Shown one piece after another: positions 18,320-61,369 of a DNA stretch of 64,000 nucleotides (its first letter is position 1; each line of letters begins with the position of its first letter). The notes beneath the pieces are model-generated. The model did no database searches and was not told the origin of the DNA. It saw nothing but the letters and a program-made list of their open reading frames with translations. Origin of the DNA: Antedon mediterranea (Eukaryota > Animalia > Echinodermata); the NCBI RefSeq assembly GCF_964355755.1, contig NC_092676.1, forward strand, positions 27,298,871 through 27,362,870. Reading direction: 5' to 3'. A program made the translations under genes and the position numbers.

Positions 18320-18385
18320 GATTCATATTTTGTTGGTGCTGTCACTGTAATTTGTTACAGCAACCATACATGGGTTATATGAAAA
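18320..18385 (-). pseudogene. Relic of a TRIM-NHL 3' end
   Basis: The minus strand encodes SYNPCMVAVTNYSDSTNKI*, matching the paralog C-terminus SHNPCMVAVAN...TIKI. Confidence 0.7.
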
Positions 18386-18621
18386 AATATGTATAGGAAT
18401 AATATAAAAATACACATTGAATGATTAGATTAAGAATTAAAATACTAAAGATATTATTTATATTTTTTCATTAATTATGAATTAGGTAAAAATGGATCAC
18501 ATTTAGATATGTACAAAATTTACAATTTGATTTAATTACTTGAATATATATATATAGGAAATACTTTATATTAATTTATATACATGGTGAAGAGTAGTCT
18601 TAAATTGCTTTTAATAATTAA

Positions 18622-20327
18622 TCATTTAATAATCATTTTGATTGTTTCGCCACCCCCATTTGCTACAGCAACCATACATGGATTATGAGAAATGATACAT
18701 AACTGAAGTGGTACACTAATTCCACCTTCTTGTTTATCAATTCTTTTGATAAAATGTCCATCACTACTGAATAGTTGTAGTTTGTTGTTACTTGCTATGA
18801 TGATGTTATCATCCTCATCAACTACAACATCCCATGGCATCATCACTTTACCATCTTCATCTCCTTTATTGATGAGTACTTTCAGTGACTTGTCCTTGTC
18901 ATCATACAATAATACTTGATGCTGTGCTGCATGTGCTACTAGTACTTTGCCAGTTTTTGTAAGTGCAACATCAGAGTATCCATTGTAACATCCTTCCTTT
19001 TGTGTTCCTATCTTCTTCAACAGCTGACCATTAATTATGTCAAACACGTACACACATGTAATGTGCCAATCTGCTACATATATAACATTAGTTGCCTCAT
19101 CTATGTGAATACCACATGGATCCATCAATACACCCTTACCAATGGATCTGATCACATGATCATTCATATCACATACTTGAATGCATTTATTACCAACATC
19201 ACTGAATGCTATACTGTATTGCCATTCTTCATTTTGTACATTCTGGTAACCATCACACCTTCTGGTAGTGTAATCTTGCTTATACATTCTCCTGATAGTG
19301 TGTACTTGTGAATTTCATTTGTGAGAAATGAAACCAGCAAGCAATCATCATCATACTTTACTACTCCAAAAGGCTGACCCTCTACTTTGATAGTAAGGGG
19401 TTTGATCGTGACTTTTCCAATGTCATTTTCTTTCAATAAATCAATTGAATGTTTGTTTCTGATAAAGTTAATCTGTCTACTTGTGCTGACTTGCTGGATT
19501 TCTTCAGATTTATTAATTTCATCCATCATTTTATTTAATACAATCTCACTTGATTTCATAGCAGTTGCTGTCTCACTCTTTAGTAACTGATTTAGGGAAC
19601 TCACATTTGTGTTTAATTCAGCGTTGATTTTTGTTAATTTTGTAATTTGTAAGTCATTAACTTTCTTTTCATTTTCATAATTTTCTTCAACTTTTTTCTT
19701 CATTTCATCTGCTTTTTTCTGGATTATTAAAAACATTTCTTGAACTTGGTTATCAATATCTGTGAGACTTGCATCTTTACTTTCTTCTAGTTCTTTAGCA
19801 TTCTTTGTGACTATTTTGAGTACATTTTCTATTTTTTTTATGGATTCATTGGCAGCTTTCTTTAAGTCTTCTGATGTTTCCTTAAACGTATTAAATGCTG
19901 TTACAATGTTAATTAGTTCATGTTTTCCATCTCCTGCAGCATGTTCCATTGCAGTGCATTCTATGCATATTGGTACTTTACATTTTGTGCAATACATTTC
20001 TAATGGTTTAGCATGAGAGGCACATAGAGAGGCAGTGCCTTTAACGTCTTCTTTTTTTTCATGTTGTTTGATGGTTTCCAAGAGGTTGTTAAGAATTGTA
20101 TTTGGGGCAAGTTTTTCAAGCCCTCCTACTGGAATAGGATACTCTTTGCGACAAATAGGGCATGTTAGCTTGCCATGATTGGTTTGAACCCAATTCTCCA
20201 AACACTTCAGACAGAAACTATGAAGACAGCTAAGTGATTTTGGATCTTCTAGCCTTCCATTACAGATAGAACATTCTAGTACTTTATCATCTATATCTCC
20301 AAGTAAACTAATGTCGTTGCTAGCCAT
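18622..20327 (-). pseudogene. TRIM-NHL copy 1 (RING, B-box2, coiled-coil, NHL), frameshifted by a 5-bp insertion
   Basis: ATG at 20327 follows a ttgcag acceptor. RING is CSIC..CLHSFCLKC..CPIC. ORFs 19209-20354 and 18622-19287 join once CTGTA at 19214-19218 is removed, restoring NGNIAFSD. Confidence 0.9.
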
Positions 20328-20411
20328 CCTGCAATATTGATTTGTAATCAACATAAATTATTCAATCTAATATAGTAATAAGGATAGTAATGGTTTTAGC
20401 TATACAAACAA

Positions 20412-21154
20412 CAGGGTCAGACGCAGGGGGGGTTGCCCTAGTTACCCGGGCAACACACTTAATTTCATGCTAAATGTTTTTTTTCTGTCACTAAATTAAA
20501 ATTTAAATCCCATTTATCATATATAATAACCATTAACGTTATAGAGTCCAGTTTTGAAAGAGCCTATATGTAAATTGACAGACTGCAGCGTAAAATTATA
20601 ACCAGCATTACAATACCGCGCACTATTTTTCTGTGTGAATAAATTTCTGACTGTTTGGATTGCTTGTGTGCATCATGAGAAGGTACGAAATAAAACTTCA
20701 CTACACACTGTGTTCGTGGAAAACCCCGTCATATGGGGTGGTTGATTTGTCCATAATTATTGCATTTTGCCGGAGATTCCCCATCATATTGTCTAACTTT
20801 TTAAAATTTTTAATTGATAATAATAATAATTAATTTGTATTGATTGATTATAATTGTTAGAATTTATTAGCTTCTTACCGGAAGTACATTCGTCGTGACT
20901 TCCTTTGACGTTAAAAATGTCGCGTGTGTTTTACCAGCGGAAAAAATAGGTGGGATACGATGGTATTGCTCTTTGGTAGGCGAACTATAGGTGCCATTTA
21001 TCGTGAATTTTACGTTCGAGAGTACCATTTCCGGCCATCTAGGGGTGTCATTTAACCAAATTTGCTTCACCACAGGCCCCGCCTGCAAAAACTCGTTATC
21101 TACGGTTTTGGACTTGTGGGCAACCCCCTTAAAATAGTTCTGCGACCGCCCCTG
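20412..21154. mobile_element. Non-autonomous hAT-like DNA transposon (about 740 bp)
   Basis: Ends CAGGGTCAGACGCAG...CTGCGACCGCCCCTG with ACAAACAA-like direct repeats on both sides, one base off register. Absent from the paralogous 5' flanks at about 29810 and 61450. Confidence 0.75.
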
Positions 21155-21604
21155 AACAAACAATATTTGCTAAGAATAACTAAAGTCTATTCTTTATTAT
21201 TGATATTCATTTATTTAGGTAAAAATTTTCAATATCAAATTCATCTACATTCTTATAGATTATTTCTTTTAATGGAGTTATATGGATTGGATTTGAACCC
21301 TTTGAAATAGTCAAACACAAAGTTGCTTAATTATTGTAAATAATAAATATTAAAAAGTCACCTCTTGATAAATGGTTGTACTTAAGCTTCTTTACGTGCT
21401 GACGTGGTTGTTGAAAAGTCAGAAAGATTCCCAAAAGGTGCTGACGTGGTCGTTGAAAAGTAAGAAAGATTGGTCGGTCCAAGGTTACTATAGTAAGGGA
21501 GTTTTGCAATCATGGGACCTGATATTTAGTAAGTGCTATCGGTAAAATGTTTTTGTATTTTAAAAAATTACAATGTATCAATAACATGCTGTAAAATTGT
21601 TATT

Positions 21605-21805
21605 TAGGTAAGCAACTTCAAAGAATCTACAAAACATTTTCTTGACCAAACACATCAGATTGAAATGTTACTTGACTGCTGCCCTCTTATGACTGCTGTA
21701 GAATCTGTCCGTATTATATTTCCATGTGAGAAACTGTCCGCAATGAGTAGAGCAAGGAAAGGCGATTACACCTGGCCAAGGATTATGAGTTCTATAAAGG
21801 TAAAT
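21605..21805 (+). pseudogene. Duplicated, internally deleted MDN1 exon (copy of 8157-8445); a second copy lies at 31210-31412
   Basis: CAGATTGAAATGTTACTTGACTGCTGCCCTCTTATG...GAGTTCTATAAAGGTAAATA is nearly identical to 8296-8452 and keeps the GT donor. Confidence 0.9.
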
Positions 21806-22808
21806 AATTTAAAGATGTATTGTCACCCAAAATCATGAAAAATAAAAATGTATAAAATCAGACTTTGAATAGGCCATTTTGCAGTTATAATGAAAACGAT
21901 TAAAATAATGATTTCACTTATAAAAAGACAAAATAAACAGCCAAATTAAAAAAAAAAAATATTGTTTGCTTTAAATTACAGTTTTTTCCGGTAAATTCAG
22001 GAGGACAATATATCTTTAAATTACATTTTTGCACTTCAATAACATACAAACTTTATTTATAGAGTTGAGATAATTTTACTAAAGATCGTAAAATTAAAAC
22101 GTGGAGTTCTATTCCTTGTTATTTCACAATATACCGCTGCCACCATTTAATGATTGCCGGACACGTTTTAATGATTATTTTAACTTTTAATGTATAACTA
22201 TTAATCGGTATTATTATTCAACATGGCGTTGTATTAGAACTGCCGTTAGTGCGCAGTAGCGTTGCTATGGTTATATAGTTGGGGGCAGCATACATATATT
22301 ATGATATTACTACAGGGTTCACAATTGAGAAATTTCAAGCCAACAGCAACCTCAAACTTGACATGTATGCTACAGTTTGGTTTTGGAACGTGGATCAGTT
22401 GACATTGCGTTGCATTTCATATGACCCGCGAAAAATGTTTAAATAGGGTTAAAAGCCATGTGGCTTTTGCTCCATAGTCCACATATGTATTGATGCCATC
22501 CGCGACACTATACTCTATATCTGGCCCTCTAGATTATTTGTAAATTACAATCTGGCCCACAGTATAACTACTGGTATACATAACATAAATAGCTTAGCAG
22601 GCCCATACAACTTAATTAATATCATTGTTATTTAAGTTTAATTTAATTACGTATGTTAAGCTATACAATATATTTAAGATGATATTTCAATTATAAACTT
22701 TTTATAAAATGTATAACATACTTAGACTATATTTTTTTAATTAGTATGCACAAATTAAAATTGTAGGCCTATGTATTGAAATTTCTAAATGTATATTACT
22801 CATAAATT

Positions 22809-24234
22809 ACAAATAATAGACTTATAATGTACAAACATATGTAGAATAAACAATAAATATACAAATAATAGACTTATTATATACAAACATATGTAGAATA
22901 AACAATAAATATACAAATAATAGACTTATTATATATAAACATATGTAGAATAAACAATAAATATACAAATAATAGACTTATTATATACAAACATATGTAG
23001 AATAAACAATAAATATACAAATAATAGACTTATCATATACAAACATATGTAAAATCAACAATAAATATACAAATAATAGACTTATTATATACAAACATAT
23101 GTAAAATAAACAATGAATATACAAATAATAGACTTATTATATACAAACATATGTAGAATAAACAATAAATATACAAATAATAGACTTATCATATACAAAC
23201 ATATGTAAAATAAACAATAAATATACAAATAATAGACTTATTATATACAAACATATGTAGAATAAACAATAAATATACAAATAATAGACTTATTATATAC
23301 AAACATATGTAAAATAAACAATAAATATACAAATAATAGAATAAACAATAAATATACAAATAATAGACTTATTATATACAAACATATGTAGAATAAACAA
23401 TAAATATACAAATAATAGACTTATTATATACAAACATATGTAGAATAAACAATAAATATACAAATAATAGACTTATCATATACAAACATATGTAGAATAA
23501 ACAATAAATATACAAATAATAGACTTATTATATACAAACATATGTAGAATAAACAATAAATATACAAATAATAGACTTATTATATACAAACATATGTAGA
23601 ATAAACAATAAATATACAAATAATAGACTTATCATATACAAACATATGTAAAATCAACAATAAATATACAAATAATAGACTTATTATATACAAACATATG
23701 TAAAATAAACAATGAATATACAAATAATAGACTTATTATATACAAACATATGTAGAATAAACAATAAATATACAAATAATAGACTTATCATATACAAACA
23801 TATGTAAAATAAACAATAAATATACAAATAATAGACTTATTATATACAAACATATGTAAAATAAACAATAAATATACAAATAATAGACTTATCATATACA
23901 AACATATGTAAAATAAACAATGAATATACAAATAATAGACTTATTATATACAAACATATGTAGAATAAACAATAAATATACAAATAATAGACTTATCATA
24001 TACAAACATATGTAGAATAAACAATAAATATACAAATAATAGACTTATTATATACAAACATATGTAGAATAAACAATAAATATACAAATAATAGACTTAT
24101 TATATATAAACATATGTAGAATAAACAATAAATATACAAATAATAGACTTATTATATACAAACATATGTAGAATAAACAATAAATATACAAATAATAGAC
24201 TTATTATATACAAACATATGTAGAATAAACAATA
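22809..24234. repeat. 52-bp AT-rich minisatellite, about 27 copies
   Basis: Unit ACAAATAATAGACTTATTATATACAAACATATGTAGAATAAACAATAAATAT. Confidence 0.97.
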
Positions 24235-24617
24235 GTTTAATTTATTTGATTTATAAAGTATGTAATTTATAAACAAAAATGACCCACAAAAAATCGAAAT
24301 AAAATATTGCAGAGTTAGTAATTAAGGATTCAGAATTGAATTGAATTGAGTATATCAAACAACAGCCACCAGTACAGTTGCTTTTCCACGTGGTCCTTTG
24401 ATAAGCCAGTGGCTTGAACAGAGATTGTTGCCTTTCTTGCAACAACCGCATAACTTTATTTCTTGTGTCTACATCACAAAACCATCATTTAATGAGTACC
24501 TTTCCCACAAAATGGAAAAGGTGTGGAGACTTAGGTTAAATTGTATAGGCCTTATGGAAAACTATACCTGGTGCAAATTACCCAACATCTCAATCTCTTC
24601 CAGATCAATTTTACAGT

Positions 24618-25695
24618 GCTGAGCAGATGTGGAAAGCAGCTGAACAACTTGAAAAATACAAGAAAAGAGTAGAAAAAAATGTTGGATTAAAGAATAAGCA
24701 CAGGCTAAATTGACATGGATTGCAGAAGATGAGAGCGTCATTTGTATATGATGAAATTATACCCACTAATAGCTATTTACTCAGATACCTATACACTATA
24801 TTAATTTACACTCTCCTTATTTACATTTACACTAATGTCTAACTAATTAATAGCTATCAATGGCTCAACAATCTGAAGGACTAATGATGGGGTGGATTAT
24901 TGCAGGTTACAAAGCAAGATAAACAAAGATAAAAAGGATTGCAACCAATCAGCAGCAAGCTGAACAGCCCGCCCTCAATGTGGAGTGATAGTAAATCAAA
25001 TATCTTTTTGTTTATTCCAATACGAATACATAGAAAATCTTCTTTCCTGGACAGAAAATATCAAATTGTATAAAATGGTATTAAAATCTATATTACAAAA
25101 TATTGCACTATTTAAAATTATGATTACCACCATTAAAACATGAAAAAAAAAACTTGTTAAAATGTAGAAGAATCAAACAGTTCAATTGCATTTGTCCTAA
25201 CCTCATCTTGGATTTTTATTTAAACAAAAATATATTTACAAATGATAATGCATTATAATATGAATTGTGATGTTGGTGCTAATAAAGTTGTAAATTGAGT
25301 TTTAATTTAAAGCCTTTATTTTAAAATTAAACTGTAACCAAAGCATTATGACCAGATCACCAGACCAGATAATGCAAATAAGATGGATGGAATAAGATTT
25401 GTCAAATCATCATAATTGTGTGCACTTTTTTTTCTCTATTTTCAGTACTGTAACATTATTTGATGCTCACACCAGATTTTAAATTTTCTGTTTCTGGGTA
25501 AAATGTGACAATTTTTTTCTTGTGCACTTGACTTGAGATTGAGATATACATTATTATATTATACAATATATATTTTTTAAACATTTTACAGTATACAGTA
25601 GGTAACAAATGCCTGCATTGTGTTTTCTCATAAGATATTCTCACTTGTCACCTAGCAACAGATGAAAGACGTTACTGTTCACATTAGGTAAGCTA
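24618..25695 (+). pseudogene. Collapsed relic of MDN1 D/E-region exons and 3'UTR
   Basis: Pieces match, in order, 12828-12970, 13178-13296, 13879-13918 and 17730-18275, for example GCAGGTTACAAAGCAAGATAAACAA and CAGCAAGCTGAACAGCCC. Related copies lie at about 37380-38595 and 55790-56365. Confidence 0.8.
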
Positions 25696-25873
25696 TGTTC
25701 TGGCTATTAAATACTATTTTTAAATAAATGTTTTTGTCAATGTAGTTAACATATTTTATTCTAAATTTTAGATGTGCTTCAACAGACAATGGTTTTTGAC
25801 CTCAGCCTACCAGATAATGAGTAGAGGAAAGGCCTTACACTTTTACAAGAATTCTAAAGGTAACTTTGATGTA

Positions 25874-26057
25874 CAGGGGTGGATCCAGGATTTTATATAT
25901 TGATATAAAAAAAAGTACATTTTCAAAAAGTAAGATTTCATTTTAGCTGTCAAATGGTGTAGCATTTGTGCTCCCCCATTTGATAGTTAAAATGAAATTT
26001 TACTTGTCAAATGGGGGCAGCACACGCCCAAAGCGTAACCCCCTGGATCTGCCGCTG
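25874..26057. mobile_element. Short hAT-like MITE, co-duplicated at about 38772-38949 and 56543-56705
   Basis: Inverted ends CAGGGGTGGATCCAGG...CCTGGATCTGCCGCTG. Confidence 0.65.
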
Positions 26058-26395
26058 ATATAAATGACAATTTATGTGTTTTTCAATTCAGTTTGTTTGC
26101 ATCCATGAATAGTTACAGTTGGTTTTTACTCGGGGTACCCGAGTCTAGGACTTACTCATTTTCTCCTCTTCTTCCTCCATCTGGACACTATTGAGTAAAA
26201 AGTGCGATTTTTAAAGTACTACTCCTCCCTTATTCGTTGTAGTATTGAGCTGGGATTTGGCATGAACATACTACAGGGACATGTCCTCAAAGCTATAGAG
26301 CCGGATTTTTAATTTTTTGTTAATTAATTTGTTTAATTAAGAAGCCACAATGTGTGACACACACCACAGCGTTATGTAGTTATATGGTTATATGC

Positions 26396-26467
26396 GGATT
26401 CTTGGCGTAGTGCTTATCACGTTTGCTTAACACGCAGAAGGTACCTGGTTCGAGCCCGGACGAAACC
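26396..26467 (+). tRNA. tRNA-Val(AAC)-like degenerate copy
   Basis: GGATTCTTGGCGTAGTGCTTATCACGTTTGCTTAACACGCAGAAGGTACCTGGTTCGAGCCCGGACGAAACC followed by a T-run. Confidence 0.6.
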
Positions 26468-26681
26468 TTTTTTTTAAACTTTATGGTGAAAAGTACTGTA
26501 TACGCAATATGATAATTATACACAGTATATCTTATTTTTAATTTTTTTTTAAATACTTATTTTGTGTAATCGGTAATTATCACTTTTAAACATGTTTATT
26601 TTTCTTTGTGCTTATTACCATATTTATTTGTAATTTAAATGGATTAAAAAACTTTCTGTAACCCACATTTTAAGTGTAAGT

Positions 26682-26753
26682 GGTTTTCGTAGTGTAGTGG
26701 TTGTCAAGTCTGCGTAACACGCAGAAGGTCCCGGTTCGAGCCCTGGCGAAACC
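26682..26753 (+). tRNA. tRNA-Val(AAC)-like copy, probably a pseudogene
   Basis: GGTTTTCGTAGTGTAGTGGTTGTCAAGTCTGCGTAACACGCAGAAGGTCCCGGTTCGAGCCCTGGCGAAACC. It has A and B boxes, acceptor-stem pairing and a downstream T-run. Confidence 0.65.
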
Positions 26754-28056
26754 TATTTTTCTTTAACTTTCTAACTGTATACGTCTGTATACAGCTTCTT
26801 TCGTCTGTACCCCGAGTATTGCACATTTGTGCTTGTTCTACTTGTATCATGTGACCATAACTAGACTAGTTATGATACTAATTCAACACAAGCGTACTTC
26901 TTGATATGAAGGCACAACAGCTATTGCTGTTTTGGGTAGACATTTGGGATCCATCATGTGGTGTACGGTATCAAATGTTTACGATATAAAATATACTGTA
27001 CAACTATTCTCGCATCAGCCTTATTTTTGTAAAGTGTATGGGTGATATAGATAATTCATACTCATTTTGTTGTCTTTCATAATAATCTCAAAAAGATGTC
27101 AGACTTGTCCATAATCATTCCAGTGATCTGATTGGTTAATAGTCATTTCTGTCTGTAATGATGCTTTAATGATAATAGTCACGTGTAACATTTCTGTTGT
27201 CAAATCAGGAACTATCACAACTGTAAGATAACATACTGAATAGATTTCTTTACAAATCATTTTATTTATTAAGCTCAGATGTACAAACAAATCATTTCAT
27301 AAAAAATAAATTTACATAAAAACCCCTCTAATTAGATACGACTATTTATAATTGTTAATTTAAATTTATTTATTCAGGTATAATAACACAATTTACAAAA
27401 AGCATACAAAGTCTGAAAATATTGTAGTACAAAGATTGAAACATTAAAAATGATGGATCAAAAGTAGACAAATTCACAGTAAAACTACACATAAAATTTA
27501 AACATACAAAAACAGAATATTAAAAAAACAATTAAATATAACAGTATTACAAGGTTATTTAGATTAGTTTATAAAATGACCCAATAAAGTACAGAGCCCC
27601 CTCTATTTAAATACCGTGGCAATTGCTATTTATCATAAAATAAACACAGATTATTCAAGACCAGGTCATTACAATATGTTATGCTTTACCTTTTATCCTA
27701 ATATAACATTTTATCAAAGTTACATGTGTATATAAAATAAAAAACAGATTATTGATTATTTGTATTATTTAACACATTCATTACTTACAATCTTAAAGAT
27801 TATTTTTTTAATTGTAAGCTTTGTATACGAACCTAATTTGTGTGTAATTTTAAAAAATAAAATAAAACTAAATGTTGTGTTTGATGAAAATACACATTGA
27901 ATGAATAGATTAAGCATTAAAATACATAATTTTTTCAGTAATTATGAATTAGGCAAAAATGGGTTAGATATGTACACAATTTATAATTTGATTTAATAAT
28001 TTGAAAATTTCAGTTTATATAGGAAATACTTTATATAATTAATTAATTTCTTGCTT

Positions 28057-29751
28057 TTAATAATAAAATATTTTGATTGTGTTGTAACCCCAATTTACTA
28101 CAGCAACCATACATGGGTTATGAGAAATGATACATAACTGACTTGGCCAACTAATTCCATCTTTTTGTTGATCAATTCTTTTGATAAAATATCCATCACT
28201 ACTGAATAGTTGTAGTATGTATTCACTTGCTACAATGATGTTATCATGCTCATCAACTACAGCTCCATCTGGGTACATCACCTTACCATCTTCATCTCCT
28301 CCATTGATGAGTACTTTCAGTGACTTGTCCTTGTCATCATACAATAATACTTGATGCTGTCCTTTATCTACTACAAGTACTTTACCAGTTTTTGTAAGTG
28401 CAACATCAGAGTATCGACTATAACGTCCTTCCTTTTGTGTTCCTATCTTCTTCAACAGCTTACCACTATTAATGTCAAACACGTACACACGTACCCAATC
28501 TGCTACATATATAACATTAGTTGCCTCATCTATGTGAATACCCCATGGATTCATCAATACACCCTTACCAATGGATTTAATCACATGACCATTCATATCA
28601 CATATTTGAATGCATTCATTACCAACATCACTGAATGCTATGTTGCCATTCTTCATTCTGTACATTCTGTTAACCATCACACCTTCTGGTAGTGTAATCC
28701 TGCTTATACATTCTCCTGCTTGGTTGTACTTGGGAATTTCATTTGTGTTAAATGAAACCAGCAAGCAATCATCATCACACTTTACTACTCCTGTAGGATT
28801 ACCCTTTACTTCGATAGGAGGTGATTTGAATACAACATTACCAATTTCATTTTCTTTCAATAAATCAATTGGATGTTGGTATCTGATAAAGTTAATTTGT
28901 CTAGTTGTACTGACTTGTTTGATTTCTTCAGATTTATTCATTTCATCCATCATTTTGTTTAATACAATCTCACTTGATTTCATAGCAGTTGCTGTCTCAC
29001 TCTTTAGTAACTGATTTAAGGAGCTCATATTTGTGTTTAATTCAGCGTTGATTTTTGTTAATTTTGTAATTTGTAAGTCATTAACTTTCTTTTCATTTTC
29101 ATAATTTGCTTCAACTTTTTTCTTCATTTCATCTGCTTTTTTCTGGATTATTAAAAACATTTCTTGAACTTGGTTATCAATATCTGTGAGGCTTGCATCT
29201 TTACTTTCTTCTAGTTCTTTAGCATTCTTTGTGACTATTTTGAGTACATTTTCTATTTTTCGTATCGATTCATTGGCAGCTTTCTTTAAGTCTTCTGAGG
29301 TTTCCTTAAACGTATTAAATGCTGTAACAATGTTAATTAGTTCATGTTTTCCATCTCCTGCAGCATGTTCCATTTCAGTGCATTCTATGCATATTGGTAC
29401 TTTACATTTTGTACAATACATTTTCAATGGTTGAGCATGAGAGGGGCACAGAAAGGCAGTGCCTTTAGCATCATCCTTCTTTTCATGTTGTTTGATGGTT
29501 TCCAAGAGGTTGTTAAGAATTGTATTTGGGGCAAGTTTTTCAAGCCCTCCTACTGGAATAGGATACTCTTTGCGACAAATAGGGCATGTTAGCTGTCCAC
29601 AATTGGTTTGAACCCAATTTTCCAAACACTTCAGACAGAAACTATGAAGGCAGCTAAGTGATTTTGGGTCTTCTAATCGTCCATTACAGATAGAACATTC
29701 TAGTACTTTCTCATCTATATCCCCAATTATACTTGTATTCTTACTAGCCAT
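28057..29751 (-). CDS. TRIM-NHL E3 ubiquitin ligase copy 2 (TRIM2/3/56/71-like architecture), intact, 564 aa
   Basis: Uninterrupted ORF from the ATG after a ttgcag acceptor. It has a C3HC4 RING, B-box2 (CPSH..YCTKCKVPICIEC..H..H), a coiled-coil and NHL repeats (PWGIHID, IYVAD, VLVVD). Confidence 0.93.
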   Translation of the reverse strand: MASKNTSIIGDIDEKVLECSICNGRLEDPKSLSCLHSFCLKCLENWVQTNCGQLTCPICRKEYPIPVGGLEKLAPNTILNNLLETIKQHEKKDDAKGTAFLCPSHAQPLKMYCTKCKVPICIECTEMEHAAGDGKHELINIVTAFNTFKETSEDLKKAANESIRKIENVLKIVTKNAKELEESKDASLTDIDNQVQEMFLIIQKKADEMKKKVEANYENEKKVNDLQITKLTKINAELNTNMSSLNQLLKSETATAMKSSEIVLNKMMDEMNKSEEIKQVSTTRQINFIRYQHPIDLLKENEIGNVVFKSPPIEVKGNPTGVVKCDDDCLLVSFNTNEIPKYNQAGECISRITLPEGVMVNRMYRMKNGNIAFSDVGNECIQICDMNGHVIKSIGKGVLMNPWGIHIDEATNVIYVADWVRVYVFDINSGKLLKKIGTQKEGRYSRYSDVALTKTGKVLVVDKGQHQVLLYDDKDKSLKVLINGGDEDGKVMYPDGAVVDEHDNIIVASEYILQLFSSDGYFIKRIDQQKDGISWPSQLCIISHNPCMVAVVNWGYNTIKIFYY

Positions 29752-31209: not shown

Positions 31210-31412
31210 TTGGTGTGAGCAACTTCAAAGAATCTACAAAACATTCTCTTGACCAAACACATCAGATTGAAATGTTACTTGACTGCTGCCCTCTTATGAC
31301 TGCTGTAGAATCTGTCCGTATTATATTTCCACGTGAGAAACTGTCCGCAATGAGTAGAGCAAGGAAAGGCGATTACACCTGGGCAAGGATTATGAGTTCT
31401 ATAAAGGTAAAT
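31210..31412 (+). pseudogene. Second duplicated MDN1 exon relic
   Basis: ORF 31215-31445 contains QIEMLLDCCPLM..VESVRI.FPR.KLSAMSRARKGDYTWARIMSSIK, matching ORF 8131-8466. Confidence 0.9.
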
Positions 31413-47513: not shown

Positions 47514-47555
47514 CATAAATATCATAAGCAAGCGTAGGGTAACCAATATCACCTT

Positions 47556-50076: not shown

Positions 50077-51927
50077 TTAATAATATATTATTTTGATTGT
50101 GCTGTCACCATAACATGATACAGCAACCATACGTGGGTTATGAGAGATGATACATAACTGGTCTGCCACAGTAATTCCATCTTCTTGTTGATCAATTCTT
50201 TTGATAAAATGTCCATCGCTCCTGAATAGTTGTATTTTGTCTCTAGTTGCTATGATGATGTTGTCATCCTCATCAACTACAATTCCACCTGGCATTATCA
50301 CCATATTATAATCTCTCTCATTGATAAATACTTTCAGTGACTTGTCTTTATCATATAGTAGTACTTGACGCCTTCCTGCATCTGCTACAAGTACTTTCTT
50401 AGTTTTTGTAAGTGTAACATCCAAGTATTCAGTATATGATTTGTCTTCTGGTTCTATCTCCTCCAACTTCTTACCACTATTGATGTCAAACATTAACACA
50501 CATCCAATGTCCGGATCTGCTACATATATAACATTAGTTGCCTCATCTATGTGAATACCACATGGAGTTATAAATACACCCTTACCAATGGATTTGAGCA
50601 CAAGACGATTCGTATCACATACTTGAATGGATTTATTACCTTGATCACTGAATGCTATGTTGCCATTCTTCATTCTGTACATACATTTAACCATCACCCG
50701 TTTTGGTAGCGTAATCTTGCCTATACGTTCTCCTGATTGTTTGTACTTGTAAATTTCATTTGTGCAAAATGAAACCAGCAAGCAATCACCATCACCCTTT
50801 GCTACTCCTGTAGGCTTACCATCTACTTTGATAGTAAGTGGTTTGATTGTGACTTTTCCAAAGTCATTTTTTTTCAGTGAATCAATTGAATGTTTGTTTC
50901 TGATGAAGTTAATTTGTCTACAGCCATTCTGTTTGATCTCTTCAGAATTATTAATTGTATCCATCATTTTATTTAATACAATTTCGCTTGATTTCATAGC
51001 AGTTGCTGGCTCACTCGTTAATAACTTCTTTAGGAAACTCAAGTTTATATTTAATTCAGAATTTATTGTTTCTAAATTTTTCATTTGTACGTCATTAACT
51101 TTCTTTGCATTCTTATAAATCATTTCAACTTTTTTTTTCATTTCATCTGCTTTTTTCTGGATTACTTGTACCATTTCTTGAACTTTGTTATCAATATCTC
51201 TAAGGCTTGCATCTTTACTTTCTTCTAATTTTATTGCATTTTTTTCAACTACTTTAAGTAAATTTTCTGTTTTTTTAATGGATTCACTGGCAGCTTTCTT
51301 TAAGTCTTCTGATGTTTCCTTAAATGTATTAAATGCTGTTATAATGTCAATCAGTTTATGTTTTCCATCAGCTGTGTGTTGGATTACTGCACATTGTATG
51401 CATATTGGTACTTTACATTTTGTACAATACATCTCTAATGGTTTAGCATGAGAGGGGCACAGCGGTGGATTTAACAATGAAAACTGTTGTTGTGTCATAG
51501 ATTGAACTTCCTCTACAGCAAGTAATTTATGAGTAGATGTTATTGGCAACATTTTGTGATGATTACTACATGTCAAACACATGTAATGTCTGCACTCTTT
51601 ACAGTAATTTGTTACCTGTTCTGTTGATTCACAAATGCATTGAACCTCATCTTTCTTTTTTTCAAGTTTTATGGTTTCCAAGAGGTTGTTAAGAAATGTA
51701 TTTGGTGCAAGTTGTTGAAGCCCTCCTTCTGGAATGGGATGTGGTTTGCGACAAATAGGGCATGTTAGCTTGCCACGATTGGTACAAACCCAATTCTCCA
51801 AACACTTGAGGCAGAAACTATGAAGGCAGCCAAGTGATTTTGGGTCTTCTAGCCTTCCATTACAGATAGAACATTCTAGTACTTTATCATCTATATATCC
51901 AAGTGAACTTAAATCATTGCTAGCCAT
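50077..51927 (-). CDS. TRIM-NHL E3 ubiquitin ligase copy 5, intact, 616 aa, the only copy with two B-boxes
   Basis: RING; B-box1 CICE...YCKECRHYMCLTCSNHH...THKL; B-box2 CPSH..YCTKC..C..C..H..H; coiled-coil; NHL. Confidence 0.94.
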   Translation of the reverse strand: MASNDLSSLGYIDDKVLECSICNGRLEDPKSLGCLHSFCLKCLENWVCTNRGKLTCPICRKPHPIPEGGLQQLAPNTFLNNLLETIKLEKKKDEVQCICESTEQVTNYCKECRHYMCLTCSNHHKMLPITSTHKLLAVEEVQSMTQQQFSLLNPPLCPSHAKPLEMYCTKCKVPICIQCAVIQHTADGKHKLIDIITAFNTFKETSEDLKKAASESIKKTENLLKVVEKNAIKLEESKDASLRDIDNKVQEMVQVIQKKADEMKKKVEMIYKNAKKVNDVQMKNLETINSELNINLSFLKKLLTSEPATAMKSSEIVLNKMMDTINNSEEIKQNGCRQINFIRNKHSIDSLKKNDFGKVTIKPLTIKVDGKPTGVAKGDGDCLLVSFCTNEIYKYKQSGERIGKITLPKRVMVKCMYRMKNGNIAFSDQGNKSIQVCDTNRLVLKSIGKGVFITPCGIHIDEATNVIYVADPDIGCVLMFDINSGKKLEEIEPEDKSYTEYLDVTLTKTKKVLVADAGRRQVLLYDKDKSLKVFINERDYNMVIMPGGIVVDEDDNIIIATRDKIQLFRSDGHFIKRIDQQEDGITVADQLCIISHNPRMVAVSCYGDSTIKIIYY

Positions 51928-52811
51928 CTTGCAATAGTAATTTGATCAATAACCTTATTCTTTGCAGCAGTTAAAATTTTGTCCAGGTTTCAGATAATAA
52001 TGATACTTTTTACCAATAAATATGGGTGTGATCTTCAACTGTATAGTGACGGACAATTTAAAAATAAGTATTAAATATCTAAATGTAAGCACTAAAGTAC
52101 AGTTGGTTTTTCCACTTGTATCATGTGACCATAACTAGACTAGTTGAGATGTGTTCAAAATCAGTGATGCACACTACACTGAACAAAAGCATGTCTATGT
52201 AATTCTCACATTTTAAGAGATTGTATTTTGTATGTATTGTCAAATATTAATAATTCAACACAATAGTGTACTTCTTGAAGGCACAACATCTATTTCTGTT
52301 TTGGGTAGACATTTGGGATCCATCATGTGTTGTACTACGTTATCAAATGTTTACCATATAAAATGTACTGTACAACTATTTTAGCATTGGTCAGTCTATA
52401 GCCTATGATTGTAAGACTTTTAAATATGAACTGACTTTTAGTCTTTAACTTTAAACTTTCAACTCAACATTCATTTATTTTGTTAAGTGTATGTGTGATA
52501 TATTAGATAATTCATACTCATTTTGTTGTCTTTCATAACAATGATAATCTCAAAAAGATGTCAGACTTGTCCATAATTATTACAGTGATCTGAGTGGTTA
52601 ACAGTCATTTCTGTCGTCAAATCAAAATTGTTTTAATGATAATAGTCACATGTAACATTTATGTTGTCAAATCAGGAACTATTACAACTGTAAGATAACA
52701 AACTGAATGGATTTCTTTTACAAATCATTTTATTTATTAAGCTCAGATGTGTACAAACAAATCACTTTTCATAAAAGATAAATGAATTCAAAATCCCTCC
52801 AATTAGATACC

Positions 52812-53020
52812 AATAGGTTCATTTTCTTCGGCATCCGTTTCTCTATGGAACGCGTTGCCTATTGAAATCCGTCAGGCTACTTCCACCAGTGTCTTCAAAT
52901 CTCTCCTCAAAACCCACCTTTTTAATTTGTAATTTTTCTAAATTTTCTGTCTTTGTAAAGCGCATTGAGGCTTTCAGCATAATGCGCTATATCAAGTACC
53001 AGTTATTATATTATTATTAG
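52812..53020 (+). mobile_element. L2-type LINE 3' terminal fragment
   Basis: Encodes ..SLWNALPIEIRQATSTSVFKSLLKTHLF, then GTAAAGCGCATTGAG...GCGCTATATCAAGT and an (ATT)n tail. Confidence 0.75.
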
Positions 53021-53829
53021 ATGACCAAATAAAGTACAGAGCGCCCTCTATTTAAATACTATGCCAATTACTCAAGACTAGGCCATTACAACAGTGCTTT
53101 ACATTTTATCAAATCACCTGTATATAAAATAAAAAACAGATTATTGATTTGTATTATTTAACACATTCATTACTTATGAACTTAGAGATTATTTTTTAAT
53201 TGTAAGCTTTGTATAAGAACCTAATGGTTTTGTGTGTAATTTTATGAAAAACATTAAAGATGTATTGTCCCCCAAAAACATGAAAAATGAAAATCAGACT
53301 TTGAATAGGTTATTTTTGTAGTTTTAATAAAGTTAATCACTTCCGAAGAAAAAAATAATGTTTTCACTTATAAAGTAACATAATAAATGGTTAAATTCAA
53401 CCAAAAATCCATTGGCTGGCAGCCAATTTGACCATTTTTTGCTTTAAATTCCAATTTTTTCAGGTAAATAATTTTTTTTCCATCCAATTTTTGTTCGAAG
53501 TAAATAACTATTATGTGACATTAAAATGGCATATTCAACAACAAAAAAAATAAAATAATTTTTCAGGGCGACAGTACATCTTTAAATAAAACTAAATAAC
53601 TCAAATGTTGTGTTTCATAAAAATACACATTGAATGATTAGATTAAGCATTAAAGATACATAAGATATTATTTATAATTTTTATAGTAATTATGAATTCG
53701 TTAAAAATGGATTCCATTCAGGCGTGTACAAAATTTGATTTATTATTTGAATATTTCAATTTATATACGAAATACTTTATATATTTAATTTGTATATCTT
53801 TAATTTGTATACACAGAAGAGTCTTGCCT

Positions 53830-55489
53830 TTAATAATTAAACATTTTGATTGTTCTGCCATCCCAATTTGCTACAGCAACCATATGTGGGTTATATGAAA
53901 AGATACATACTGATGTGGTTCACGAATTCCATCTTCCTGTTGATCAATTCTTTTGATAAATTGTCCATCACTACTGAATAGTTGTAGTTTGTCTATACTT
54001 GCTATGATGATGTTATCATCATCATCAACTACAATACTACGTGGCCATATCACCTTACCATCTTTATCTCCTTCATCGATGAGCATTTTCAGTGACTTGA
54101 CCTTGTCATCATACAATAATACTTGGTTGTCTTCTGCATCTGTTACAAGTAGTTTACCAGTTTTTGTAAGTGTAACATCAAAGTGGTAAAAATCTGTTAC
54201 TATCTTCTTCAACAGCTTACCATTAATTATGTCAAACATAAACACACATTCCATGTCCCAATCTGCTACATATATAACATTAGTTGGTTCATCTATGTGA
54301 AAACCCCATGGATCCTTTATTGTTCGCCTAAATACACCCTTACCAATGGATCTGATCACATGACCATTCATATCACATTCTTTAATGCATTTATTACCGT
54401 CATCACTGAATGCTATGTTGCCATTCTTCATTTTGTACATTCTGTAAACTCTCACACCTTCTGGTAGCGTAATCTTACTTATACATTCTCCTGATTGTTT
54501 GTACTTGTAAATTTCATTTGTGTCAAATGAAACCAGCAAGCAATCATCATCACACTTTGCTACTCCTGTAGGTGTACCCTCTACGTTGATAGTAAGTGGT
54601 GTGAATACAACATTACTAATGTCATTTTCTTTCGATAAATCAATTGAATGTTTGTTTCTGATAAAGTTAATCTGTCTAGTAGTATTGACTTGCTTGATTT
54701 CATCAGATTTATTAATTTCATCCATTAGTGTATTTAATACAATTTTTGTTAAATTTGTAATTTGTACGTCATTACCTTCCTTTTCCTCCATATAATTTGC
54801 TTCAACTTTTTTTCTCATTTCTTCTCCTTTTTTCTGGATTACTTGTATCATTTCTTGAACTTGGTTATCAATATCTGTAAGGCTTGCCTCTTTACTTTTT
54901 TCTAGTTCTTCAGCATTCTTTGTGACTACTTTAAGTATATTTTCTGCTTTTTTTATGGATTCATTGGATTTGTTCTGACTGCTTTAAGTACATTTTCTGT
55001 TTTTTTTATGGATTCATTGGCAGCTTTCTTTAAGTCTTCTGAGGTTTCCTTAAATGTATTAAATGCTGTAATAATGTTAATTAGTTCATGTTTTCCATCT
55101 CCTGCGGCATGTTGCATTTCAGTGCATTCTATGCATATTGGTACTTTACATTTTGTACAATACATTTCTAATGGTTGAGCATGAGAGGCGCACAGAGAGG
55201 CAGTGCCTTTAACCTCACCTTTCTTTTCATGTTGTTTGATGGTTTCCAAGAGGTTGTTAAGAATTGTATTTGGTGCAAGTTTTTGAAGCCCTCCTACTGG
55301 TATGGGATATTTTTTGCGACAATTCGGACATGTAAGTTGTCCATTATTGCTTTGAACCCAATTTTCCAAACATTTCAGACAGAAACTATGAAGGCAGCTA
55401 AAGGATTTTGGATTTTCTATTCTTTCATTACGGATAGAACATTCTAGTTCTTTCTCATCTATAGACACGTTTACGTTGTTGCTAGCCAT
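53830..55489 (-). pseudogene. TRIM-NHL copy 6, pseudogene
   Basis: RING Cys is lost (ECSIRNE). An internal duplication of about 53 bp at 54910-55020 breaks the frame, the coiled-coil has an in-frame deletion, and there is a frameshift near 53908. The ancestral stop is at 53830. Confidence 0.88.
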
Positions 55490-56910
55490 CCTGCAAGAAT
55501 AATGTGTAATTTCTTTATGTGGAATAAATTTGGTATAGCAATAGTTTTTTTGTTACTAAAATAAATAAGAAAACCCATGTTTAAGAGCTGCTACAGAGGC
55601 CAAGAAGAAGAAATGCCTATTTATACATTTGAGGAATATGTTTTTATACTATAGTTTTAACTAAACTAATTTCTAATATCGTATATCGCACTGAAGCCCT
55701 TCTTTGGCAGAAAATGTGTTTACAAATTCCGGTACATATTAAAATATATTGCACTATTTAAAATTATGATTACCACCATTAAAACCTAAAAAAAAACAAC
55801 TTAAAAAGTAGAAGATCACTTTCAACCAGTTCAATTGCATTTGTCCTAACCTCATCTTGGATTTTTATTTAAACAAAAATATATTTACAAATGATAATTT
55901 ATTATATTATGAATTGTGATGTTGGTGCTAATAAAGTTGTAAATTGAGTTTTAATTTAAAGCCTTTATTTTAAAATTAAACTGTAACCAAAGCATTATGA
56001 CCAGATCACCAGACCAGATAATGCAAATAAGATGGATGGAATAAGATTTGTCAAATCATCATAATTTTGTGCACTTATTTTTCTCTATTTTCAGTACTGT
56101 AACATTATTTGATGCTGTAGATGCATCCAACACCAGATAACATTTTAAAATTTTTGTTTCTGGGTAAAATGTGACAACTTTTTTCTTCTCCTGTGCACTG
56201 ACTTGAAATTGAGATATATATTATTATATTATACAATATATATTTTGTAAACATTTTACAGTATACAATAGGTAACAAAGGCCTGCATTGTGTTTTCTCA
56301 TAAGATATTCTCACTTGTCACCTAGCAGCGTTAACAGATAGAAGTTACTGTTCACATTAGGTAAGATATGTTCTGGTTATTAAATACTAGTTTTAAATAA
56401 ATTTATTGTCCATGTAGTTAACATATTTTATTTAACATTTTAGATGTGTTTCAACAGACAATGGTTTTTGACTGCAGCCTACCAGATAAGTAGAGAAAAG
56501 GCCTTACACTTTTACAAGAATTCTAAAGGTAACTTTGATGTACAGGGGTGGATCCAGGATTTTTATATATTGATATAAAAAAGTAAATTTCCAAAATAAG
56601 ATTTCATTTTAGATGTCAAATGGGGTAGCATTTGTGCTCCCAATGAAATGTTACTTGTCAAATGGGGCAGCACTCGCCCAAAGCGTACCCCTGGATCTGC
56701 CGCTGATATAAATGAAAATTTATGTGTTTTTCAATTCATATGCCGCAGTTTGTTTGCATCCATGAATAGTTACAGTTGGTTTTTCTACTCGTATCATGTG
56801 ACCATAAGTAGACTAGTTATGATGTTAATTCAACACAATAGTGTACTTCTTGAAGGCACAACAGCTATTGCTGTTTTGGGTAGACATTTGGGATCCATCA
56901 TGTGTTGTAC

Positions 56911-57820
56911 AGATACAGATACAGATACAGATACAGATAACTTTTATTGTCCAAATAAACTGGAAATTGCATTTGCTCACTTATCACATACAAAAATCGT
57001 ATAAAAATATCGAATAAAAATAAAGTATAAAATGTAGAATAACAATATAAAAATACACAATGATTAAAATAGTACATCATAAAATTACAGCTCAAAAATA
57101 TTTAAGTTAAAAATACAGATCATTACAAACGGTTTAAAAAGTGTCTTATATTTCATTATTAATTATATATTATATTATTTATTATTGTTATCAAAATTAT
57201 TGTAGTTACCTCTTAAAGTCATCGTTAAATTTTTTAATCCCAGCAGGTAGAAACGAATTTGAGTATCGACCCGTCCGCGCCAACACCGACCTCAGTCTAC
57301 CACTTCTACCAATGTGGCAGCGAAGAAGATCCGAATGAAGGGGGTGGCTTTCCTCCTCCATGACCGCCTGTAAACCATTTTTCAATCGTTCTCCGTAGTG
57401 ACAATCGTAGACTGAGTCCGCTGTCAGCGCCGACGAGCCAATCACTCTTAATGCCCTTTCTAACACTTTACATATGCGGCCCTTATCTCCTTTGTTTATG
57501 TTCCCACCCCAGCCTAATAGGCAATAATCCCAGATTGAAAAAATAACAGATGAATAAAACATTGTAAGTATCTCTTCCCTTACCCTAAAAACGTTCATTT
57601 TCCTCAAACAGTACAGTCTAGTATTTAATTTTTTAATTAGTTGATCTACATGCTCTCCCCATGATAAATTATTGTCATACGTTACCCCAAGATACTTATA
57701 TGTTTTAACGATTTCTACCTCATGTCCTTTAATCTGGACAGGCTCAATTTCCCTTCTTTTTTTACGGCGGAAATCTATTCGCATTTCTTTGGTTTTTGCT
57801 ACATTAAGTTCAAGGAAATT
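56911..57820 (-). mobile_element. 5'-truncated LINE (Rex-Babar-like RT C-terminus)
   Basis: LNVAKTKEMRIDFRRK, YKYLGVTYDNNLSW and RYSNSFLP motifs, with a (TATCTG)n tail. The empty site is visible in the paralog at about 39150. Confidence 0.85.
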
Positions 57821-58863
57821 AAATGTTTACGATATAAAATATACTGTACAACTATTCTTGCATTAGCCTATGATTGTAAGATTTTGTTTAGTCTTTAACT
57901 TTAAACTTCCAACTCAACATTCATTTATTTTGTAAAGTGTATGGGTGATGTAGATAATTCTTACTCATTTTGTTGTCTTTCATAACAATGATAATCTCAA
58001 AAAGATGTCAGACTTGTCCATAATCATTCCAGTGATCTGATTGGTTAAGTCATATTTCTGTCGTCAAATTAAAATTGCTTTAATGATAATAGTCACGTGT
58101 ATCATTTCTGTTGTCAAATCAGGAACTATCACAACTGTAAGATAACAAACTGAATGGGTTTCTTTTAATCATTTTATTTATTAAGCTCAGATGTACAAAC
58201 AAATCATTTCATAAAAAATAAATTTACATAAAAACCTCTCTAATTAGATACAACTATTTATAATTGTTAATTTAAATTTATTTATTCAGGTATAATGACA
58301 CAATTTACAAAAAAGCAAACAAAGTCTGAAAATATTGTAGTACAAAGATTGAAACATTAAAAATCACGGATCAAAAAAAAAATAAAATGATTCATTCATG
58401 TACAGAGCGCCCTCTATTTAAATACCGTGGCAATTGCTATTTATCATAAAATAAACACAGATTATTCAAGACCAGGTCATTACAATATGTTATGCTTTAC
58501 CTTTTATCCTAATATAACATTTTATCAAAGTTACATGTGTATATAAAATAAACAACAGATTATTGATTATTTGTATTATTTAACTCATTCATTACTTACA
58601 ATCTTAAAGATTATTTTTTAAATTGTAAGCTTTGTATACGAACCTAATTTGTGTGTAATTTTAAAAAATAAAATAAAACTAAATGTTGTGTTGGATGAAA
58701 ATACACATTAAATGAATAGATTAAGCATTAAAATACATAATTTTTTCAGTAATTATGAATTAGGCAAAAATGGGTTAGATATGTACACAATTTATAATTT
58801 GATTTAATAATTTGAATATTTCAGTTTATATAGGAAATACTTTATATAATTAATTTCTTGCTT

Positions 58864-61369
58864 TTAATAATAAAATATTTTGATTGTGTTGTTACCCAAA
58901 TTTGCTACAGCAACCATACATGGGTTATGAGAAATGATACATAACTTATGGAACGCCGTTTACGCAACATTTCGATGATATGAATTTTATGACGCGATAT
59001 GTGAATGAAATGCATCGATATGAATTAAATGGTGCGATATATGAATGAAATGTTTTGAATTGAATGCTTTGAATTGAATATTTTGAATGAAATGTTTTGA
59101 ATGAAATGTTTTGAATGAAATGTTTTGAATGAAATGTTTTGAATGAAATGTTTTGAATGAAATGTTTTGAATGAAATGTTTTGAATGAAATGTTTGAATT
59201 GAATTGAAAAGTCAAACTATTGGTGGCGTATGTCATTCTCGCTCGCGATTATTTTCTCAACCTCTTAGGCCTAAGCCTGGGTACCCTCATCTCTTTTCTT
59301 CCACGCTGCCTTTACAGAGAATCCTAACAGACCTGGGTTCGGAAATATGTATTCCAATGTTTCAGGTCTGTTAGGGAGTCTCTGTAAAGGATTCATATTG
59401 ATGACAGCGTTGAAAGGAGATGAGGGTACCCATGCTTAGGCCTATTAAGAGGTTGAAAAAAAATCGCGAGCGGGAATGACATACGCCGCCAATAGTTTGA
59501 CTTTTTAATTCAATTCAAACATTTCATTCAAAACATTTCATTCAAAACATTTCATTCAAAACATTTCATTCAAAACATTCAATTCAAAACATTTCATTCA
59601 AAACATTTCATTCAAAACATTCAATTCAAAGCATTCAATTCAAAACATTTCATTCATATATCACACCATTCAATTCATATCGATGCATTTTATTCACATA
59701 TCGCGTCAAAAAATTCATATCATCGAAATGTTGCGTAAACGGCGTTCCATAATAACTGCTTTGGTACACTAATTTCACCTTTTTGTTTATCAATTCTTTT
59801 GATAAAATGTCCATCACTACTGAATAGTTGTAGTTTGTCTATACTTGCTATGATGATGTTATCATCTTCATCAACTACAACTCCTTTTGGCCACCTCACT
59901 TTACCATCTTCATCTCCTTTATTGATGAGTACTTTCATTGACTTGTTCTTGTCATCATACAATAATACTTGATGGTTTCTTGCATCTGATACAAGTACTT
60001 TACCAGTTTTTGTAAGTGCAATATCAGAGTATCTATGTTCTTTATTTTGTGTTCCTATCTTCTTCAACACACCATTAAGTATGTCAAACATAAACACACA
60101 GTTAATGTGCAAATCTGCTACATACATAACATTAGTTGCCTCATCTATGTGAATACCCCATGGATTCATCAATACACCCTTACCAATGGATTTGATGACA
60201 TGACCATTCATATCACATACTTGAATGCATTTATTACCAAAATCACTGAATGCTATGTTGCCATTCTTCATTCTGTACATTCTGTTAATCATCACACCTT
60301 CTGGTAGTGTAATCTTGTTTGTACATTCTCCTGATTGTTTGTACTTGTGAATTTCATTTGTGCGAAATGAAACCTGCAAGCAATCATCATCACACTTTGC
60401 TACTCCTGTAGGTATACTCTCTACTTTGATAGTAAGTGGTTTGAATACAACATTTCCAATGTCAATTTCTTTCAATAAATCAAATGGCTGTTTGTTTCTG
60501 ATAAAGTTAATTTGTCTAGTAGTATTGACTTGCTTGATTTCTTCAGATTTATTAATTTCATCCATCATTTTGTTTAATACAATCTCACTTGATTTCATAG
60601 CAGTTGCTGTCTCACTCTTTAGTAAATGATTTAGGGAACTCATATTTGTGTTTAATTCAGCATTGATTTTTGTTAATTTTGTAATTTGTAAGTCATTAAC
60701 TTTCTTTTCATTTTTATAATTTGCTTCAACTTTTTTCTTCATTTCATCTGCTTTTTTCTGGATTATTAAAAACATTTCTTGAACTTGGTTATCAATATCT
60801 GTGAGACTTGCCTCTTTACTTTCTTCTAGTTCTTTAGCATTCTTTGTGACTATTTTGAGTAAATTTTCTATATTTTGTATCGATTCATTGGCAGCTTTCT
60901 TTAAGTCTTCTGATGTTTCCTTAAACGCATTAAATGCCGTTACAATGTTAATTAGTTCATGTTTTCCATCTCCTGCAGCATGTTCCATTTCAGTGCATTC
61001 TATGCATATTGGTACTTTATATTTTGTACAATACATTTTCAATTGTTGAGCATGAGAGACGCACAGAGAGGCAGTGCCTTTAACCTTCCTTTTCTGTTCA
61101 TGTTGTTTCACAGTTTCCAGGAGGTTGTGAAGAAAAGTATTTGGGGCAAGTTTTTGAAGCCCTCCTACTGGAATAGGATACTCTTTGCGACAAATAGGGC
61201 ATGTTAGCTTGCCATGATTGGTACGAACCCATTTCTTCAAACACTTCAGACAGAAACTATGAAGGCATGAGCTAAGTGATTTTGGGTCTTCTAGCCTTCC
61301 ATTACAGACAGAATATTCTAGTACTTTCTCATCGATATCTCCAAGTAGACTAATGTCGTTGCTAGCCAT
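58864..61369 (-). pseudogene. TRIM-NHL copy 7, interrupted in the last NHL blade by a foldback element
   Basis: ORF 59720-61369 runs into the insertion after VPKQL. The remainder (CIISHNPCMVAVANLGNNTIKIFYY*) lies at 58864-58946. The first RING Cys and a B-box Cys are both changed to Tyr. Confidence 0.88.
58947..59751. mobile_element. 805-bp foldback (almost wholly palindromic) DNA transposon with 14-bp internal tandem repeats
   Basis: Ends TATGGAACGCCGTTTACGCAACATTTCGATGATATG and its reverse complement. Arms contain (GAATGAAATGTTTT)n. 6-bp TSD ATAACT (58941-58946 and 59752-59757). Confidence 0.92.

Follow-up and report, generated by a model that had tools for sequence, protein, structure and literature searches.

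A tandem TRIM-NHL gene array with a diversifying propeller top face in the crinoid Antedon mediterranea

The known TRIM-NHL proteins form a small set of conserved regulators of development and of RNA, while the diversified antiviral TRIMs carry a B30.2 domain and are known from vertebrates. A stretch of 64,000 nucleotides from the genome of Antedon mediterranea (NC_092676.1, positions 27,298,871 to 27,362,870, hereafter the window) raises the question of whether the same evolutionary design has arisen on an NHL propeller in an echinoderm. Translation and self-comparison of the window identified seven copies of one TRIM-NHL gene and a fragment of about 30 codons, all on the minus strand at 18643..61369, downstream of the plus-strand midasin gene. 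This is a well-supported diversifying family, with strong diversifying selection on the top face of the propeller and purifying selection on the scaffold (RING, B-box plus coiled coil). The copies are labelled A, B, C, D (the fragment), E, F, G and H, and the whole coding sequence lies in one reading frame. The initial annotation had counted seven copies over this span, three of them intact, and proposed birth-and-death turnover. All of this was borne out, with uninterrupted frames in B, E and F, broken copies A, C, G and H, and the fragment in addition.

18643..20327, minus strand: copy A, RING-Bbox2-coiled coil-NHL pseudogene, frameshifted near 19215 by a 5-nucleotide (nt) insertion and with 11 further nt inserted at the C-terminus
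28057..29751, minus strand: copy B, intact single-frame open reading frame (ORF) of 564 amino acids (aa), RING-Bbox2-coiled coil-NHL, without filamin
28060..28815, minus strand: six-bladed NHL propeller of copy B, residues 313-564
33680..34462, minus strand: copy C, propeller-only gene with one internal TAA in blade 5
37645..37734, minus strand: fragment D, about 30 codons from blades 1-2
40310..42043, minus strand: copy E, intact ORF of 577 aa with a 14-aa duplication ahead of the propeller
50077..51927, minus strand: copy F, intact ORF of 616 aa, the same sequence as database protein P0004
53833..55489, minus strand: copy G, pseudogene with a 53-nt duplication, an 84-nt deletion, a 1-nt deletion and a RING Cys to Arg change
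58867..61369, minus strand: copy H, pseudogene with blade 6 interrupted by an inserted element, and RING and B-box Cys to Tyr changes

The conservation of these copies was compared region by region. Mean pairwise aa identity was 0.80 for both the RING-B-box region and the coiled coil (0.72 when F is one of the pair), 0.77 in the propeller once 18 motif positions were set aside, and 0.20 at those 18 positions among the window copies. The contrast is thus between a ring on the top face and everything else, rather than between propeller and scaffold; nonsynonymous rates were 0.79 in the propeller framework vs. 0.71 in the scaffold. The earlier description of a near-identical scaffold in seven copies was too strong, as only six have a scaffold at all (copy C is without it). 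Copy G is without the KSETATAMKSSE segment through its 84-nt deletion, F has TSEPATAM and IQC, and H has YCTKYK. By contrast, the six lists of variable NHL motifs given in the initial annotation are all present in the sequence, with the small exception of LQVSF for LLVSF in H, which also has YMYVAD. The claim that the same NHL positions differ from copy to copy also stands, and this variation goes beyond chance and neutrality.

An AlphaFold2 model of the copy B propeller, built from a 51-row alignment, was used to place the variable residues. The model is confident (predicted local distance difference test score of 95.2) and has six blades, and its best Foldseek matches were the NHL domains of TRIM2 and TRIM71, with TRIM3 and Thin also matched (template modelling scores of 0.83-0.87). 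It places three positions per blade, 18 in all, at the d-a and b-c loops. These loops are by definition what forms the top surface of an NHL propeller (PMC4015489). In copy B these are:

Before the Pro of xPxG: 318, 359, 401, 446, 493, 535
After the Pro of xPxG: 320, 361, 403, 448, 495, 537
First residue after strand b: 335, 376, 419, 463, 510, 554

Of 17 sites with a posterior >0.9 for positive selection, 12 were among these 18 positions, while none of 47 bottom-loop positions exceeded 0.9 or even 0.5. The variable sites are therefore clustered on one face of the propeller, as predicted, rather than scattered.

Selection was quantified with a GY94 codon model written for this analysis (F3x4, naive empirical Bayes; not PAML) and applied to the seven window copies, with the other paralogues used as proteins only. 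The scaffold (312 codons, six copies) had an omega, the ratio of nonsynonymous to synonymous rates, of 0.36 under M0, and M2a vs. M1a gave twice the log-likelihood difference (2dlnL) of 4.5 (p 0.11). The propeller (253 codons, seven copies) had an M0 omega of 1.34 and a 2dlnL of 122, with 9% of sites at omega ~11. M8 vs. M8a gave 121 for the propeller, 84.5 on 161 gap-distant columns, 45.0 in the three intact copies alone, 63.3 in the broken copies alone, and 33, 39 and 71 for each third of the propeller (a blade pair) on its own tree. Simulated recombination nulls yielded statistics of 0-5.6 in eight of eight cases. When rate variation was included in the null, the propeller statistic was 49, and 32 (p 1e-7) with multi-base (double and triple) mutations as well; the corresponding values for the whole gene in six copies were 33 and 18 (p 1e-4). 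Branch lengths were rescaled, not refitted, in these extended models. Selection survives in them, with omega at ~8-10.

The nonsynonymous rate at the 18 sites was 12 (9-16), whereas synonymous rates across the gene peak at 2.5 (2.0-3.0). Purifying selection acts on the bottom loops (omega 0.36), and change is rare in the Pro, Gly and Asp codons adjoining the variable codons. Selection is non-uniform, a small share of propeller codons having an omega far above 1, and a uniform dN/dS at or below 1 was not what the models returned. Retroelement-style, adenine-specific diversification was also considered and rejected: position 335 is NNC in all seven copies, but codons 318, 495, 510, 535 and 537 vary at all three bases, and self-comparison of the window revealed no template repeat for such a process.

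The presence of related proteins outside the window allowed an independent check. At E ≤1e-10 we identified 85 homologues: 19 from Antedon mediterranea, 54 from Anneissia japonica (isoforms and haplotypes may be among these), one that is copy F, and 11 distant matches. Copy F, one propeller-less protein and the distant matches were left out, and 66 of the 72 other crinoid proteins had at least 200 aligned propeller residues (17 Antedon, 49 Anneissia). Among the 25 most variable positions, the 18-position set held 16 in the Antedon proteins and 14 in the Anneissia proteins, and over all 66 paralogues mean entropy was 2.8-3.0 bits at the 18 positions vs. 0.8-0.9 in bottom loops. In the window copies, the 25 sites picked by Anneissia entropy alone evolved at a nonsynonymous rate of 6.3 (5.0-7.4), about three times the scaffold synonymous rate of 1.9. 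The same positions therefore vary across six blades of differing DNA context and in another genus.

A tree of 81 propellers placed the 73 crinoid rows in one group (Shimodaira-Hasegawa-like approximate likelihood ratio support of 99) with Antedon and Anneissia unmixed, and grouped the seven window copies with six other short Antedon proteins (97). This was a quick version of the tree, in which a long outgroup branch meets the crinoid group. The Antedon paralogues are spread over at least six contigs. We read the family as a multi-copy, crinoid-specific clade with pseudogenes, in which the filamin domain has been lost in the window subclade. Only copy F had an exact match in the protein collection, an annotation that does not in itself demonstrate expression; B and E had none. 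Reads of four sequencing runs, compared to copy B at 90% likeness, gave 522, 536, 159 and 72 short contigs, which are mainly paralogue-derived, and their summed depth does not represent a copy number.

Domains were assigned by Pfam profile matches, with the coiled coil mostly read from position and sequence. The N-terminal RING (PF00097) and the B-box (PF00643) were above cut-off in B, E and F, the TRIM_CC match was weak and in copy E only (E 0.004), and NHL (PF01436) was matched in B, E and H, with a weak match in F. No filamin match was found in B, E, F or in the relatives P0002, P0003 and P0007, while all five long relatives scanned had a filamin match (mostly below cut-off) and two B-boxes. 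The first B-box has been lost in all window copies but F, which retains a 55-aa Cys/His-rich segment that we read as B-box1 from its likeness to two-B-box relatives. Pfam found no SPRY (B30.2) domain; the C-terminus is NHL instead. Other domain losses and gains occur among the relatives, such as P0069 without RING and B-box and P0001 with two scaffolds. The intact RING ligands suggest E3 ubiquitin ligase activity in the intact copies; one RING Cys ligand is substituted in each of G and H, and G has two frameshifts. In copy C the family's splice acceptor and start (MASNN) are fused in frame to blade 1, and this stand-alone propeller, in frame beyond its one stop, may be a formerly working decoy.

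Recombination among the copies was evident; like the low silent divergence of the propeller, the filamin loss and the wider crinoid family, it had gone unnoticed in the initial annotation. The scaffold rejects the propeller tree and the propeller that of the scaffold (approximately unbiased test, p 0.013 and 0.030). Informative sites that lie close together show greater compatibility than the same sites after shuffling (0.41 vs. 0.56, p 0.0002, 94 sites). Silent sites differ markedly between the two regions: 5 of 47 fourfold sites are variable in the propeller vs. 21 of 51 in the scaffold (p 0.0006), fourfold pairwise divergence is 0.035 vs. 0.15, and counting over all synonymous sites gives 0.10 vs. 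0.18-0.23. Even F, which is the most distant copy, shows this low propeller divergence. Within the coiled coil, a stretch of 40 codons has the same uniformity at silent sites, and B and H share 97% identity in their 3' flanks. This patchwork suggests gene conversion, which probably homogenises the silent sites of the propeller and shuffles its variable codons; constraint on silent sites is a possible alternative cause. Intergenic blocks common to the repeat units (21550-27500, 31155-33500, 37000-39700 and 52250-58950) are 88-98% identical, exceeding some neighbouring coding regions, and are best read as a record of recent unequal crossing-over or conversion.

What such proteins would do was considered in light of known TRIM biology. 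We think it somewhat probable that the family is a germline repertoire of cytosolic sensors, in which the propeller top face binds changing foreign ligands and is coupled to RING-dependent ubiquitination. The best reading is a sensor of the finTRIM/TRIM5 type with NHL in place of B30.2, and we infer the label "immune receptor" by analogy to finTRIM, TRIM5 and TRIM56. TRIM5 and TRIM21 dimerise and are activated by clustering. By the same logic, the top face would bind a changing foreign ligand, probably a pathogen protein, a coiled-coil dimer would display two propellers, and multivalent binding would cluster the RINGs, leading to ubiquitination and then degradation or signalling. Gene conversion would keep the framework uniform while shuffling the variable codons. 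A broader version, in which crinoids and perhaps many marine invertebrates have an antibody-like intracellular repertoire of TRIM-NHL E3 ligases, is offered tentatively and is more doubtful. In it, frequent conversion would hold the propeller framework close to identical in DNA sequence, dozens of paralogues as well as broken copies would trade some 18 top-face codons, and the new pathogen-binding surfaces would be wired to ubiquitination.

Several observations weigh against the sensor reading or the selection beneath it. The sample is seven sequences, four of them broken, and the 18-position set was defined after the posteriors were known, which is why the check in other paralogues matters. 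Strong codon-wide rate variation simulated without positive selection gave a 2dlnL of 36-120 in eight of eight cases, so the plain test is inflated; we consequently rejected the M1a/M2a statistic as sole proof and used the extended models, in which allowing rate variation drops it from 122 to 32-49. The scaffold itself carried some signal (M8 vs. M8a 4.8, p 0.028; M8 vs. M7 10.5), and simple counting at the 18 sites gave a ratio of nonsynonymous to synonymous differences per site (pN/pS) of only 1.75. Silent divergence, the denominator of omega, is 2-4x lower in the propeller than in the scaffold, which accounts for part of the propeller-wide omega >1; the nonsynonymous rate at the 18 sites is still above every synonymous rate. 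Ultraviolet B damage also induces sea-urchin TRIM-like genes (PMC13043383, sections available), indicating that induction is not specific to infection.

The absence of any adaptation is the alternative most directly addressed by these data. Here, hot-spot or unconstrained surface codons would vary freely while conversion lowered silent divergence, making omega look high, and indeed rate variation can mimic the plain test, the propeller silent sites are unusually uniform, and the propeller without its variable sites sits near an omega of 1 when measured against the synonymous rate of the propeller itself. Selection persists nonetheless once rate variation and multi-base changes are modelled, the nonsynonymous rate at the 18 sites exceeds that of any synonymous class, the flanking codons are nearly fixed while bottom loops are constrained, and the same positions vary in six blades and another genus. 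This explanation is already largely refuted and highly improbable. Non-pathogen self/non-self recognition, such as allorecognition or gamete or symbiont recognition, would also place positive selection on binding faces, as such systems are known to do. The ORFs, however, open directly at the RING region, Pfam matched only cytosolic TRIM domains, inspection by eye revealed no signal peptide or membrane segment, and the diversity seen is among paralogues, which makes this very unlikely.

Two further alternatives turn on RNA. By spacing in the TRIM71 alignment, 9 of the 14 RNA-contact residues of zebrafish LIN41 (list from the available part of PMC5908797) appear to fall on the three hypervariable position classes. 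This is consistent with diversified RNA-binding regulators or sensors, in which every paralogue would recognise its own sequence or shape of RNA, from host or virus, in the manner of Brat and LIN41. In the crinoid family, Asn, Arg, Tyr and Trp are frequent at the 18 positions, with Trp, Arg and Tyr enriched, the median net charge over the 66 paralogues is +1, and the NHL-like domain of TRIM56 binds viral RNA. Yet the charge runs from −8 to +5, and window copies have 0-4 Lys/Arg and 0-4 Asp/Glu at these positions, several being neutral or acidic. No conserved basic top surface of the LIN41/Brat type was found, as judged from residue charges at the 18 positions rather than an electrostatic surface. 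Host-RNA regulators are also conserved and not turned over, whereas four of seven copies here are dead. RNA reading is thus quite unlikely, and the residue mix and charge swing fit varied ligands better than one conserved RNA. An internal arms race would yield the same selection pattern: here the propellers would act against transposons and other selfish elements, probably in the germ line, by binding their proteins or RNAs, with ubiquitination or silencing as the outcome. The overlap with the LIN41 RNA positions and the germ-line work of canonical TRIM-NHL proteins favour this idea. A top face that is not consistently basic is at odds with the positive top surface of RNA-binding NHL domains (PMC4015489, in its available sections). 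We consider it unlikely, and return to foreign-ligand sensing as the preferred reading.

Known systems resemble the family in different respects. The TRIM-NHL proteins of class C-VII, or Marin subfamily C (TRIM2, TRIM3, TRIM32/Thin, TRIM71/LIN-41, Brat, Mei-P26), share the RING, B-box, coiled coil and six-bladed NHL; TRIM2, TRIM71, TRIM3 and Thin are the best sequence and fold matches, and the variable residues occupy top-face positions that bind RNA in LIN41. Unlike these proteins, the window family is multi-copy, has pseudogenes, is without filamin and is encoded in a single reading frame, and the crinoid top face is hypervariable rather than consistently basic. In primates, TRIM2 was the sole C-VII gene among the 17 of 67 TRIMs under selection, at two sites outside known domains, and the accessible text of that study reports no selected site inside the NHL domain (PMC3845644). 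The teleost finTRIM, btr and trim35/hltr genes and primate TRIM5alpha are similar in having expanded as lineage-specific clusters whose N-termini are alike, in recombining, and in being under positive selection on the C-terminal domain that binds the ligand, where it falls on loops (PMC2657112, PMC3137616, each in part). They differ in carrying B30.2/PRY-SPRY rather than NHL, and long variable loops rather than single variable residues in a ring. In addition, finTRIMs were found as virus-induced transcripts, while the crinoid family is known here from genes alone.

TRIM56 combines RBCC (RING, B-box, coiled coil) with an NHL-like propeller and is antiviral; its NHL-like domain is required for flavivirus restriction and binds viral RNA and TRIF (available sections of PMC13236048). 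It is a single-copy gene with a divergent NHL-like domain, and is likened to the crinoid family without a claim of orthology. Large invertebrate TRIM sets of sea urchin and oyster carry automatic "TRIM2/3/45/71-like" names, as the crinoid family does. In Strongylocentrotus purpuratus 140 TRIMs are annotated (PMC13043383), and an oyster tolerance module contains 79 TRIM transcripts, with TRIM2/3-like transcripts tracking parasite tolerance (PMC9892467). In the portions of these papers available, the sets are described by counts and expression, without domain-level selection, and the likeness to the crinoid family drawn here is one of name. Marin 2012 (PMC3503706, in part) links tandem TRIM expansions possibly to defence. 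A search of full texts, with few subscription papers and no supplements, found no published work that deals with this crinoid family or shows invertebrate NHL propellers to be under diversifying selection; the main texts of PMC10210618 and PMC12373286 contain no TRIM genes or NHL, and their supplements could list such genes.

This echinoderm case of the same evolutionary design, here built on NHL and with its variable residues identified codon by codon, opens to experiment the question of how invertebrates, which lack antibodies, recognise pathogens inside their cells. It also offers a possible identity for the many genes called "TRIM2/3/71-like" in transcriptomes of infected invertebrates. 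Joined to a putative E3 ligase, a fixed propeller whose face varies in nature is a possible scaffold for targeted protein degradation.

Other features of the window include the element inserted in copy H:

58947..59751, strand not assigned: foldback element resembling a miniature inverted-repeat transposable element, 805 bp, long inverted arms, target-site duplication of 6 bp

This element also has internal 14-bp minisatellites, and no superfamily was assigned. Remains of retrotransposons of the long interspersed nuclear element (LINE) type occur at 44110-47265 (plus), 47796-48659 (minus), 5240-6178 (plus) and 57206-57826 (minus), with endonuclease and reverse transcriptase matches at 44110-46525 and the others judged by eye. 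Midasin (MDN1) exons extend over ~400-16000 on the plus strand; one of them, at 15568-15870, gave a match to solved structures of midasin (E 1e-35), and the remaining exons were assigned from position and sequence only. Between midasin exons lies a 24-bp minisatellite of 21 copies (2121-2627) with three open minus-strand frames, one of them (YHYGSTSG)n; these frames had no Pfam match, and the repeat is probably non-coding. Tandem repeats of 52, 64, 71, 107 and 22 bp are found at 22802-24234, 35109-35443, 42271-42688, 17113-17509 and 63035-63264, respectively, and the 22-bp unit is nearly palindromic, with 10 copies that are 100% identical.

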